Source: Escherichia coli | GTDB lineage: Bacteria > Pseudomonadota > Gammaproteobacteria > Enterobacterales > Enterobacteriaceae | Reading direction: 5' to 3' (one strand) | Length of the DNA stretch: 64,000 bases | Assembly (NCBI RefSeq): GCF_003019035.1 | Contig: NZ_CP027447.1 | Shown: positions 1,172-10,660 of the stretch, piece after piece | How the letters are laid out: every line of letters starts with the position of its first letter | Numbering within the stretch: position 1 is the first letter of the stretch | Made by a program: the position numbers and the translations under genes | The notes under the pieces: generated by a model | Database searches by the model: none | What the model saw: the letters and a program-made list of their open reading frames with translations, nothing else | Told to the model about the DNA's origin: nothing

Positions 1172-1840
1172 CTAGGTAATATTCTCTTCTTCAGTGTATT
1201 TTTTTATGGCCTGTTCAACATCGTCATAATAATGAATAGCATTATCTCTACCCAAAAAAAGCGCAACATCACAGTATTCTTTTAATGAGTTAAGGCTGTG
1301 CGAAACCATAACAAAATTAGATTCAGAACGCCTAGCTTTAAATATTTTTGCACATTTCTCTCTAAATCGAGCATCACCAACCGCGGTAATTTCATCGACC
1401 AAATAGTAATCAAATTTGAACGCCATGCTTAATCCAAATCCTAGACGAGATCGCATCCCTGATGAATAAGACTTGATCGGCATATCAAAATATGTACCTA
1501 ATTCCGAAAATTCTTCTACAAAATTAATTTTTTCTTTAAGATCTTTTTTATCTGCATATAAACGCGCTACAAACTTTACATTTTCCCTTCCAGTCAGACT
1601 TCCTTGAAAACCACCAGAAATTCCAACAGGCCAAGAAATAGTTTTGTTTGTATAAACGGCCCCCTTGTCTGGTCTATCTATACCACCTATTATACGAAGA
1701 AGAGTGGATTTACCTGCTCCATTACGTCCAAGTAGCGCAATACTTTTACCACTTGGTAATTCAACATTTAAATCTTTAAATACATAATGTCGTCCTTGTG
1801 GTGTGAGATATGATTTAGTTAAGTTTTTAATTATGATCAT
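1172..1840 (-). CDS. kpsT: Capsule polysaccharide export ABC transporter ATP-binding protein KpsT
   Basis: Walker A GRNGAGKST, ABC signature YSSGMRSRLGF, Walker B YYLVDEITAVGD; near full-length similarity to remembered KpsT. Start set at internal Met (MIIIKNLTKSY) 19 codons into the track ORF. Confidence 0.8.
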   Translation of the reverse strand: MIIIKNLTKSYLTPQGRHYVFKDLNVELPSGKSIALLGRNGAGKSTLLRIIGGIDRPDKGAVYTNKTISWPVGISGGFQGSLTGRENVKFVARLYADKKDLKEKINFVEEFSELGTYFDMPIKSYSSGMRSRLGFGLSMAFKFDYYLVDEITAVGDARFREKCAKIFKARRSESNFVMVSHSLNSLKEYCDVALFLGRDNAIHYYDDVEQAIKKYTEEENIT

Positions 1841-2035
1841 AAAGTTAATAACACCTTGTGTATTGCTATACAATATAGGAACTCCGCATCTACCCAAGCA
1901 GTGATAAAAATAGGCCCATTATAAATGTTTTATAAATTTTAATTATAGGGAAACACATTAGAATGGGCCATGTAAATTATCGATACATCATCATAATTAA
2001 CAGTTTGGGCGTCATGACTCCCTTTAATTATACAA

Positions 2036-9822: not shown

Positions 9823-10599
9823 TCATGATGTCAGCATTGCCTCTTCACGCGTTCGGTATAACGCCAGACCGATGAACAGGGTGACCAGAGTGAACATTGC
9901 AAGGTAGTTTAGACTCACGCCTTCGCTGATATAGCCAGGCATAACTGCCTCGCGGCTTAACTCTACGACATGCACTAATGGATTCCAGAGTAGATATGAC
10001 CAGTATTGCTTCGGAATCGAGTGTAGAGGGAACATGATGCAGGAGATGAAATACAGCGGCTTAAGCAGTATCGGCAGGACCTTTTGCATTTCAGGGAAAG
10101 TCTTACCAACGACCATGAATATTAAGCCAACGCCACATGAAAGAATGATTAACAAACTCCAGGTAAGCACAAGTTGTAAAAAGTTTGTTATTTCGAAATA
10201 TTCGCCTGCCATCCAGACAATAAGCATAAGCAATATATAAACAGCAACATAAATCAGTGTCTCAAGCAATGCACGCGCAATGATCGTATCGATGGGTTTT
10301 ACTGGTCGATAATTAAACAGCCCCTGATTCGCTTCAATAGCACCTACAGAACGATTGCTGATACTGCTAAAGATAAAAAAGGGAATCAGGCCATTAAGTA
10401 AAAACACCGGGAATGAGATGTCTGGCATCGTGCGGTGCATAATGTAACCAAAAATGCCCAACAGTATCAGCAAATGCGCAGAGGGTTCGAGAATCGCCCA
10501 CAGATATCCCAGACGGAACTTACCAAAGCGTGTTCGTATTTCTCGTAGAAATAATGCCTCTACGGTGACTTTCTGGACTTCAAATCCACTTCTTGCCAT
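9823..10599 (-). CDS. kpsM: Capsule polysaccharide export ABC transporter permease KpsM
   Basis: ABC-2 type permease; sequence from MARSGFEVQKVTVEALFLREIRTRFGKF matches remembered E. coli KpsM. Start set at MARSG (258 aa) rather than the 278-aa track ORF. Confidence 0.85.
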   Translation of the reverse strand: MARSGFEVQKVTVEALFLREIRTRFGKFRLGYLWAILEPSAHLLILLGIFGYIMHRTMPDISFPVFLLNGLIPFFIFSSISNRSVGAIEANQGLFNYRPVKPIDTIIARALLETLIYVAVYILLMLIVWMAGEYFEITNFLQLVLTWSLLIILSCGVGLIFMVVGKTFPEMQKVLPILLKPLYFISCIMFPLHSIPKQYWSYLLWNPLVHVVELSREAVMPGYISEGVSLNYLAMFTLVTLFIGLALYRTREEAMLTS

Positions 10600-10660
10600 T
10601 TGATGATGTGATCCTAATCTCTTCAGGTACGCTACCGCCCTTGGCTTAACAGCTACCAAT
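10600..10660 (-). promoter_or_regulatory. JUMPstart element with ops (5'-GGCGGTAG-3' on the transcribed strand) in the kpsM leader
   Basis: Reverse complement of about 10632-10639 is GGCGGTAG, about 33 bp upstream of the kpsM ATG, embedded in GGTAGCTGTTAAGCCAAGGGCGGTAGCGT. Confidence 0.65.

Follow-up and report, generated by a model that had tools for sequence, protein, structure and literature searches.

A group 2 capsule locus of Escherichia coli that fits the K106 genotype and carries kpsT at a distance from kpsM

The window, which is the whole stretch of 64,000 nucleotides that was analysed, carried close to its left end a block of eight intact genes, all co-oriented on the minus strand, in the order kpsM, a GT2-like gene, a CgeB-like gene, wecB, wecC, a gene for a glycosyltransferase (GT) of 920 aa, kpsT and a GT-A gene. 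KpsT was thus encoded by the seventh of the eight genes, which did not adjoin kpsM. The first gene of the block, kpsM (9823-10599), encodes the 258-aa permease of the KpsMT exporter. Its ORF had the NCBIfam KpsM model as top match (E 9e-56), and the protein was 100% identical to the K7-type KpsM and 99.6% identical to that of K5, with 99-100% identity across K5, K7 and K52. Ahead of it on the same strand, a JUMPstart element at 10628-10666 matched Rfam RF01707 with 58.5 bits (gathering score 35, E 1.4e-11) and included an exact match to the ops octamer GGCGGTAG, the loading site of RfaH, at 10632-10639. The element ended 28 nt before kpsM and the octamer lay 32 nt before the kpsM ATG. These two matches bore out the original prediction that kpsM stands directly behind a JUMPstart/ops leader. 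Two more ops octamers in the window (51395 and 58470) were located within ORFs and had no JUMPstart match, and are therefore regarded as chance matches. The interval between gspM (yghD) and kpsM (10600-11637, minus strand) corresponded to the conserved region 3 promoter with its long leader; together with kpsM it was matched in about 1,740 E. coli genomes.

The gene at 1172-1840 (minus strand) encodes an ATPase of 222 aa and lies 7.98 kb downstream of the kpsM stop codon. The protein was 76% identical to K5 KpsT over 215 aa, and in a comparison with solved structures its best match was 8TSI, the ATPase of the KpsMT-KpsE complex (E 3e-83, residues 1-215). Similarity extended over the full length, no additional C-terminal domain was present, and the ABC motifs were intact: Walker A GRNGAGKS, signature YSSGM, Walker B YYLVDE and the SH of the H-loop. 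NCBIfam returned no KpsT-specific model, only TagH/Wzt-type matches below threshold, and we therefore relied on the comparison with K5 KpsT and with the solved KpsMT structure. By name, the top NCBIfam matches, all far under their cut-offs, would point to an ATPase of another glycan exporter, Wzt- or TagH-like, that came in with the serotype genes and is not the partner of KpsM. We consider this exceedingly improbable, given a full-length identity of 74-79% to bona fide E. coli KpsT alleles, an E value of 3e-83 for the KpsT chain of 8TSI against 1e-37 for Wzt/TagH types, and a length of 222 aa that leaves out the C-terminal carbohydrate-binding extension; moreover, the window held neither a second permease nor another kpsT. 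From these comparisons, the ATPase is KpsT and the predicted exporter partner of KpsM. Neither tblastn nor blastn found a second copy of kpsT or kpsM, or fragments of either, in all 64 kb, so that the gene at 1172-1840 is indeed the sole KpsT-type ATPase, as had been predicted. A match to mir-6 at 1129-1191 (25 bits, gathering score 58) was noise.

Five co-oriented biosynthesis genes lay between kpsM and kpsT and one beyond kpsT, an arrangement that the original prediction had described with coordinates that all hold. All six are on the minus strand. The place directly after kpsM, usually that of kpsT, was occupied by a GT2-like gene annotated as galactosyltransferase-related (8730-9722; PF10111, E 1e-18, and PF02709), which was present in 107 complete genomes. 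Its homologues are found at the same position in K7 and K52, and after kpsT in K116. ATCC 8739, for which the gene and not the locus was compared, also had a GT2-like gene of 99.7% identity. The next gene (7371-8360) encodes a putative glycosyltransferase, CgeB-like by its Pfam annotation (PF13524) and a "CgeB family protein" in RefSeq; the protein is paralogous to the N-terminal portion of the 920-aa GT, with 32-33% identity to K106_9 and K7_9 in the catalogue tables. It is followed by a non-hydrolysing UDP-GlcNAc 2-epimerase gene of the wecB type (6186-7331, with the start at 7325 according to RefSeq; TIGR00236, 503 bits against a cut-off of 210) and by wecC (4850-6103; NCBIfam NF008286, 664.8 bits against a cut-off of 459). 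The 920-aa GT (2036-4798) is a putative polymerase of two domains, with a GT-B-like DUF3880/PF13524 region and a PF00535 GT2 domain. Beyond kpsT, the last gene of the block (331-1092) encodes a GT-A-like glycosyltransferase of 253 aa, "glycosyltransferase family A protein" in RefSeq, with a weak Pfam GT2 match (E 0.013). It corresponds to slot K106_7, is specific to this K type and absent from K7, and the exact protein occurred in 83 index blocks of public contigs.

The junction behind kpsM was sharply defined. In the aligned K106, K7, K52 and K5 sequences, the heptamer ATGATTA (9820-9826, minus strand) joins the kpsM stop to the overlapping canonical kpsT start, and homology to the classical kpsMT of K5 ended exactly after it. 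In the window these letters open an ORF of 33 codons instead (9826-9725), whose stop lies 2 nt ahead of the ATG of the next gene; a 33-aa gene was called there on a Logan contig. Searches of the window by tblastn and by blastn with word size 7 found no remnant of a former adjacent kpsT beyond these 7 nt, and no kpsM 3' end beside kpsT. The spacer upstream of kpsT (1841-2035, minus strand) is 195 nt long and AT-rich, contains a Shine-Dalgarno-like AAGGTG and holds no kpsM remnant. A second long spacer, of 369 nt, lies upstream of the CgeB-like gene (8361-8729). When the surroundings of kpsT were checked for recombination junctions, neither repeats nor IS elements were found at them, and a K7/K106 breakpoint came to light inside the 920-aa GT. 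In five K106-type loci, no IS elements or repeats were annotated at the junctions, save for one strain-specific IS3 insertion.

On the other side of the block, the window begins within kpsS, the last gene of region 1 (kpsFEDUCS), which is convergent with the kpsM operon. The kpsS 3' end at 1-107 (plus strand) was mapped from the locus of strain SCU-301, where kpsS lies at 16935-18107; the remainder of region 1 is outside the window. SCU-301 is nearly identical to the window, with two substitutions and two one-base indels across 11.7 kb, and its RefSeq gene boundaries agree with the window ORFs. There, kpsFEDUCS converges on the block and the gsp flank is present. Read in SCU-301, region 1 in the order kpsF-E-D-U-C-S, with KpsE and KpsD of the 2A type, thus stands just left of the window start. 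KpsE and KpsD were 99.7% and 99.1% identical to the proteins of the K7-type locus, the KpsE accession WP_000905920.1 was common to the K7, K52 and K116 type loci, the other 2A loci that we examined, and the KpsD accession WP_001301060.1 to two of them. The chromosomal site, beside the gsp (yghD/gspM) operon with gspM at 11638-12192, is that of lineage 2A as well. The classical three-region layout with an overlapping ATGA between kpsM and kpsT was absent. Since kpsT lies 7.98 kb away and only the ATGATTA stub follows kpsM, the layout is non-classical, although the locus belongs to lineage 2A. We are confident, short of certainty, that what lies in the window is the distal half of an E. coli group 2 (lineage 2A) kps locus, natural and intact, of the kTYPr K106 genotype, a sister of K7 (K56), which is a serologically defined, ManNAcA-containing capsule.

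The assignment to K106 follows the kTYPr catalogue (Nat Microbiol 2026, PMC13171606), whose K106 reference is a lineage 2A locus in a draft assembly (GCF_019104395, NZ_JAHRXU010000002.1:343293..361670). In the part of the catalogue available to us, the K-specific genes of this type run from K106_7 to K106_13, with entries for _7, _9, _10, _11, _12 and _13 and K106_8 not among them; within that part, the gap fits a conserved kpsT in slot 8, inside the serotype-specific block. The same part gives 920 aa for K106_9, 417 aa for K106_10 (ManNAc dehydrogenase) and 379 aa for K106_11 (WecB). The reference cluster measures 18,378 bp, and in SCU-301 the span from kpsF to kpsM is 18,375 bp. K7_9 and K106_9 are 90.8% identical in the catalogue; our own comparison of the window with a K7-type genome gave 90.4%. 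By the numbering of its K-specific genes, their order, the ORF lengths and the cluster length, the locus fits K106. Compared through catalogue gene numbering and lengths, no difference from the K106 reference was detected, and the relation to K7 was the same as the measured one. As order and lengths fit, a reference cluster with this gene order already exists, and the claim that the order is unlike that of known capsule clusters did not hold. The original prediction had left the choice between a rearranged or unusual architecture and a capsule type that it did not recall. The second applies, through the match to K106, and the first only relative to the textbook K1/K5 layout. The displaced-kpsT layout was already known, having been catalogued in 2026 (K7, K106, K52); K7 and K52 appear in the available catalogue text as cases in which kpsM/kpsT are rearranged.

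The closest relative, K7 (=K56; 48 complete genomes, such as IMT16316 and AF23), likewise has kpsT at the distal end. Its kpsM, GT2-like gene, CgeB-like gene, wecB, wecC and the first ~620 codons of the 920-aa GT gene were 99-100% identical to the window, whereas the distal cassette differed: the polymerase GT2 domain shared only 72-76% nucleotide identity with the window, a DUF6270 gene stands between the GT gene and kpsT, the GT-A gene after kpsT is missing, KpsT was 79.5% identical to that of the window, and the KpsS C-terminus is longer (414 aa against 390 aa). The K106 polysaccharide is predicted to resemble that of K7 in containing ManNAcA, but to have an altered linkage or an additional sugar and to lack the modification that the DUF6270 gene would contribute. 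Along the window, nucleotide identity to the K7 type was 99-100% above position ~3050, about 92% in 2851-3050 and 72-76% below ~2850, and homology to the K7-type locus ended at position 103, within the kpsS 3' end. Within the 920-aa GT gene, codons 1-620 had a dS of 0.008 relative to K7, and codons 640-920 one of 1.6. These values place the K7/K106 recombination breakpoint inside the GT gene, at about 2900-2950.

K52 (40 complete genomes) shares the layout with different chemistry. Here too the gene next after kpsM is a GT2-like homologue (70.6% aa identity), and kpsT lies apart, behind a large polymerase gene, but it stands mid-cluster with four further genes behind it, and the chemistry genes differ (a CDP-glycerol-type phosphotransferase, an acyltransferase and others). 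With 77% identity, the KpsT of K52 ranked among the nearest relatives of the K106 and K7 alleles. In K116, homologues of the K52 genes are present (GT2-like 63%, phosphotransferase 47%, acyltransferase 71%), yet kpsM and kpsT still overlap in the canonical way, the GT2-like gene follows kpsT, and KpsT is K5-like (86% to K5). K116 may give a picture of a possible unsplit ancestor. Classical group 2 loci (K5 of Nissle 1917, K1) resemble the window in the kpsFEDUCS region 1, the site beside gspM, the region 3 promoter and leader with JUMPstart/ops, a KpsM of 99.6% identity and the low GC content of the serotype region. They differ in that their kpsT overlaps the kpsM stop (ATGA) ahead of region 2, whereas in the window it comes after five region 2 genes. 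The "atypical G2" K loci KL112 and KL110 (PMC13171598; bioRxiv 10.64898/2025.12.15.689991) also depart from the three-region layout: region 1 leads straight into region 3, region 2 is located outside the two, and kpsMT is represented by divergent alleles. The window, by contrast, has kpsM in its normal place with a normal allele, and kpsT alone is displaced.

The arrangement was found well beyond a single assembly. The capsule stretch as a whole recurred at an identity of at least 99.5% in five complete E. coli genomes; their hosts were human or dog, apart from one strain for which none is recorded. Of 1,713 complete E. coli genomes with kpsT, about 93 had it displaced (5 of K106, 48 of K7 and 40 of K52 type). 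Among the matches listed for contigs of other assemblies that carry the GT-A protein, the gene order was the same in all three loci, and 21 further places were grouped as similar. The misassembly that the original prediction had considered was therefore not borne out. That a misjoin in AT-rich capsule DNA put kpsT in the wrong place is a practically negligible explanation, since the order is the same in five independently assembled complete chromosomes and in the contig loci just mentioned, the related K7 and K52 loci, in 48 and 40 genomes, show an analogous displacement, and the junctions are free of repeats and IS elements with every ORF intact. Nothing spoke for a misjoin, and only two substitutions and two 1-bp indels separate the window from the closest complete genome. 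What recurs here is a natural genotype, neither an assembly error nor a one-off rearrangement.

A recent and possibly disabling rearrangement, in which a decaying locus has had kpsT cut off from kpsM and export impaired, would be in line with the loss of the classical ATGA translational coupling, with the IS3 insertion in the locus of one K106-type genome (WP4-S18-ESBL-08) and with a 1-bp difference, close to the 5' end of the gene for the 920-aa GT (window position 4782), that shifts the annotated start of this gene in SCU-301. All eight genes are intact in the window, however, and between the window and K7 or K52 the displaced kpsT alleles showed a pS of ~0.7, with synonymous divergence near saturation, and a dN/dS of 0.05-0.08. 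From these rates, the displaced alleles are old and under purifying selection, and kpsT has thus long been maintained as a working gene in this setting. Furthermore, the K7 serotype reference strain, of K7 type in the catalogue, makes a typable K antigen, the K7-type loci of two other complete genomes show the split layout, and K52, which is likewise split, is among the commonest and most invasive bloodstream K types. For the K7 serological reference strain, all kps genes are present and the polysaccharide structure has been published. Decay is therefore very unlikely, if somewhat less remote than a misjoin.

K5 region 2 has internal promoters. In the window, the features of a long RfaH/ops operon were found, namely ops in the leader, eight co-oriented genes and no strong intrinsic terminators. 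Terminator-like matches numbered 9 against a shuffle expectation of 5.6 (sd 2.8), those on the minus strand lying inside ORFs or upstream of ops, and sigma-70-like promoter matches across the region were below chance (44, shuffled expectation 52.6). The stretch from kpsM through kpsT to the GT-A gene most likely works as one RfaH-dependent operon, as suggested by gene orientation, short spacers and, in what are weak scans, promoter and terminator signals that do not exceed chance. Transcription of region 3 is known to begin upstream of kpsM and to run into region 2 with the aid of RfaH, and RfaH dependence of the distal genes is known for the K1 and K5 loci (PMC5654933). A promoter of its own, independent of the kpsM/RfaH transcript, would make kpsT part of a second transcription unit or one of several. 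The 195-nt AT-rich spacer before kpsT and the 369-nt spacer before the CgeB-like gene leave room for one, and an 11/12 sigma-70-like match is found at 1153-1124, just downstream of kpsT and before the GT-A gene. Nevertheless, we regard this as decidedly unlikely: the scan, whose 44 promoter-like matches in the region fall short of the 52.6 expected from shuffling, returned no minus-strand sigma-70-like site in the spacer at 1841-2035, and the group 2 loci studied so far need read-through from region 3 for expression of region 2 (PMC5654933). In the single-operon model, transcription would start at the conserved region 3 promoter, RfaH would be loaded at ops/JUMPstart 28 nt ahead of kpsM, and the antiterminated polymerase would read through ~10.3 kb, and the kpsM message would, as we propose, also carry kpsT and the last GT gene. 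KpsM and KpsT would then assemble as the usual M2T2 exporter, and the classical ATGA coupling of adjacent genes could be dispensed with.

As to the origin of the layout, the conserved flank of all group 2A loci would end exactly at the kpsM stop, and kpsT would therefore already form part of the variable, low-GC cassette. Long ago, a block that starts with the GT2-like gene may have become placed between the two exporter genes in the K7/K106/K52 lineage. The later divergence of K106 and K7 would have come about through homologous replacement of the distal cassette, comprising the polymerase GT2 domain, kpsT, accessory genes and the kpsS 3' end. KpsT identity between types is 72-79%, against 99-100% for KpsM, and the displaced alleles of K7, K106 and K52 shared 77-79% with one another against 72-74% with those of K5 and K116, a grouping drawn from few alleles and small identity differences. 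A published KpsT tree places K52 beside K106. A tentative reading, on balance doubtful, goes further and takes K7, K106 and K52 as one ancient 2A sub-lineage that stems from a single insertion headed by the GT2-like gene, with kpsT travelling and diverging together with the serotype genes because the ATPase is co-adapted to the synthesis machinery and is not a generic export part. If so, the K7/K106 mosaic would offer natural material on the coupling between ATPase and synthesis, with the same proximal genes combined with different kpsT alleles and different GT2 domains of the polymerase.

As a discovery, the layout carries little weight, because it is catalogued and common and includes K52, a leading bloodstream capsule type. 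It does have practical consequences: typing and PCR schemes that assume adjacent kpsM and kpsT ("kpsMT II" amplicons), as well as annotation pipelines that expect kpsMT as region 3, will mis-score loci with a displaced kpsT. For the biology of group 2 capsules, it would mean that gene adjacency and translational coupling are dispensable for the two exporter subunits, that the boundary between conserved and variable parts may be placed at the kpsM stop codon, and that kpsT would act as a member of the exchangeable cassette.

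The first ~11,640 nt of the window form the distal part of the chromosomal capsule (kps) locus of E. coli; next come the gspM(yghD)-gspC type II secretion operon, pppA and sslE. GC content was ~55% in the gsp genes but only 26-40% in the kps locus, a drop expected of a group 2 capsule region. The closest genome, SCU-301 (NZ_CP051751), was identical over 11.7 kb except for 2 substitutions and 2 single-base indels. There, region 1 (kpsF-E-D-U-C-S) adjoins the left end of the window and runs convergently to the genes from kpsM to a terminal GT-A-like gene; of kpsS, only the last 107 nt fall inside the window. 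The indels map to window positions 4782 and 8618, the former near the 5' end of a gene for a 920-aa glycosyltransferase (GT; 2036-4798, minus strand). In the window this gene is a clean ORF with an ATG start, and the odd longer N-terminus in the RefSeq annotation of SCU-301 stems from the indel at 4782. Outside the capsule locus, the sRNA family C0719 (RF00117) gave a full-length match at 30360-30581 (plus strand, 297.6 bits), between ORFs 28599-30281 (glcA according to the SCU-301 annotation) and 30636-32807.

The original prediction described kpsM behind a JUMPstart/ops leader and a kpsT remote from it, and all the elements it listed were present at unchanged coordinates. KpsM (9823-10599, minus strand) had the NCBIfam KpsM model as its best match and was 99-100% identical to KpsM of the K5, K7 and K52 loci. 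The JUMPstart element (10628-10666, minus strand) matched Rfam with 58.5 bits (gathering score 35, E 1.4e-11) and contains an ops octamer at 10632-10639, 32 nt before the kpsM ATG. Two further exact octamers, at 51395-51402 and 58470-58477 (minus strand), lie inside long ORFs without a JUMPstart match; three or more octamers were reached in 11 of 100 shuffles, so the total of three in the window is within chance expectation. The ATPase gene at 1172-1840 (minus strand) encodes a protein with 76% identity to K5 KpsT over 215 residues. Its best solved-structure match was the ATPase chain of the KpsMT-KpsE complex (8TSI, E 3e-83), Wzt and TagH types following at ~1e-37; every ABC motif is intact and an extra domain is absent. 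By these sequence criteria it is a true KpsT. No second kpsT or kpsM, nor a fragment of either, was found in the whole 64 kb.

As had been predicted, five co-oriented genes separate kpsM from kpsT and one lies beyond. All are on the minus strand: a GT2-like 'galactosyltransferase-related' gene (PF10111/PF02709), a CgeB-like gene (PF13524), wecB, wecC, the 920-aa GT, a putative polymerase with a PF13524 GT-B-like region and a PF00535 GT2 domain, and, after kpsT, the GT-A-like gene (331-1092). UDP-ManNAcA synthesis genes are complete in the locus and exporter genes intact.

The split layout is neither an artefact nor unique. The full 11.7 kb was found at ≥99.5% identity in 5 complete genomes from different hosts. 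The exact GT-A protein was indexed in 83 blocks of public contigs, with the same neighbours and order in all three contig loci shown. One of the five genomes, WP4-S18-ESBL-08 (NZ_AP022095.1), carries an IS3-family insertion in the locus, between wecC and wecB according to the feature list, which may inactivate its capsule. Another 48 complete genomes matched 2037-11700 at 97.4% and then differed, with the order kpsM, the same four genes, the 920-aa GT, a DUF6270 gene, kpsT and kpsS. A third split locus, found via the closest kpsT relatives, occurred in 40 complete genomes and reads kpsM, a homologous GT2-like gene, a 1,248-aa CDP-glycerol-type phosphotransferase, kpsT, an acyltransferase and further genes. 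Altogether, kpsT was displaced from kpsM in ~93 of 1,713 kpsT-positive complete genomes (5 + 48 + 40). ATCC 8739 (NZ_CP043852.1), a widely used laboratory and QC strain, has the K7/K106-type GT2-like gene at 99.7% identity and presumably carries a K7-family locus with displaced kpsT.

The locus fits the K106 genotype, sister of K7, in the accessible part of the 2026 K-type catalogue (kTYPr; PMC13171606), by gene numbering, order, sizes and cluster length. The K106 reference cluster measures 18,378 bp; kpsF to kpsM of SCU-301 spans 18,375 bp, with gene order and sizes that fit exactly. That part of the supplements lists as K106-specific K106_7 and K106_9 to K106_13, among them K106_9 (920 aa), K106_10 (417-aa ManNAc dehydrogenase) and K106_11 (379-aa WecB). 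K106_8 is not among them, a gap where kpsT would sit. By the same source, K7 fits the 48-genome variant (18,648 bp versus 18,647 bp in IMT16316) and K52 the third split form (21,425 bp versus 21,423 bp in FDAARGOS_1370), and both types are cited there as cases of rearranged kpsM/kpsT. It gives 90.8% identity between K7_9 and K106_9 and 100% between K7_10 to K7_13 and K106_10 to K106_13; the corresponding values measured here were 90.4% (920-aa GT) and 99.2-99.7%. A reference cluster with the same gene order thus exists in K106, an outcome that the original prediction had itself named as counting against it. Of its two alternatives only the fallback, a capsule type with a layout of its own, was right; the locus is rearranged only relative to the textbook K1/K5 layout. 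The locus belongs to lineage 2A, without the classical region 3 layout. The 'atypical G2' loci (PMC13171598; ST131 KL112 preprint) represent a different rearrangement, with region 2 outside regions 1 and 3. The reference strain of serotype K7 is recorded as having all kps genes, and its polysaccharide structure has been published (Tsui et al. 1982); K52 ranks among the most common and most invasive types in the bloodstream (PMC13171598).

In K5, kpsM and kpsT overlap in the sequence ATGA, which holds the stop of the first and the start of the second. Compared with K5, the K106, K7 and K52 sequences are conserved up to ATGATTA and diverge from the next base, so that the kpsM stop marks the end of the conserved flank in all these loci. 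Consistent with this, KpsM is 97-100% conserved and KpsT only ~73% identical even between K1 and K5. In effect, kpsT belongs to the variable cassette. Ahead of the displaced kpsT no kpsM remnant was found; the gene has its own AAGGTG motif upstream. A 33-codon ORF (9725-9826, minus strand) begins where ATGA overlaps the kpsM stop and closes 2 nt short of the start codon of the GT2-like gene, to which it could relay translational coupling from kpsM. This ORF is identical in K7, but may be fortuitous since its K52 equivalent has only 5 codons.

The K7 and K106 loci share 99-100% nucleotide identity from ~3050 to 11700, ~92% in the interval 2851-3050 and 72-76% over the last ~290 codons of the 920-aa GT, its GT2 domain. 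There dS was 1.6, compared with 0.008 upstream. Nucleotide identity was 76% in kpsT, and near-identity returned inside kpsS. K106 and K7 thus differ by a replaced distal cassette (~104-2950) that includes kpsT. The sharp recombination breakpoint, at ~2850-3050, lies between the GT-B-like part and the GT2 domain of the putative polymerase and amounts to a natural domain swap.

Eight co-oriented genes follow the ops/JUMPstart leader. The region 3 promoter of group 2 loci drives transcription on into region 2, aided by RfaH (PMC5654933). Here, a single RfaH-dependent message of ~10.3 kb would most likely carry kpsM first and kpsT seventh; KpsM and KpsT would be made independently, not translationally coupled as in the classical layout, and then assemble. 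The polymer is predicted to be a K7-like ManNAcA-containing polysaccharide; a different GT2 domain and one more glycosyltransferase, the GT-A, would modify it, and whatever the K7 DUF6270 gene adds would be missing. Promoter and terminator scans of the locus gave nothing above chance and carry no weight for or against internal promoters in the 369-nt spacer before the CgeB-like gene (8361-8729) and the 195-nt spacer upstream of kpsT (1841-2035). Among the minus-strand sigma-70-like matches of this region, the best one (1124-1153; TTTACA, 18-nt spacer, TATAAT, 11/12) lies within the 79 nt that separate kpsT from the GT-A gene and might be an internal promoter for the latter.

The K106, K7 and K52 kpsT alleles showed pS values of 0.68-0.73, near saturation, and dN/dS of 0.05-0.08; kpsT has thus long been kept functional in its displaced positions. 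Their proteins are 77-79% identical to each other and 72-74% to the K5 and K116 alleles, which are themselves 86% identical. The published KpsT tree, as far as its truncated Newick string goes, also places K52 next to K106. A common origin of the displaced alleles is suggested, with thin sampling. K116 loci keep the overlapping kpsM-kpsT pair, with the GT2-like gene after kpsT, and contain homologues of the K52 GT2-like (63%), phosphotransferase (47%) and acyltransferase (71%) genes. In K52, kpsT follows the GT2-like and phosphotransferase genes, whereas in K116 it precedes them. Since the block is shared and the order is not, the two types differ in the position of kpsT relative to that block. 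The series K7, K106, K52 and K116 may serve to ask whether KpsT has co-adapted to the serotype-specific machinery.
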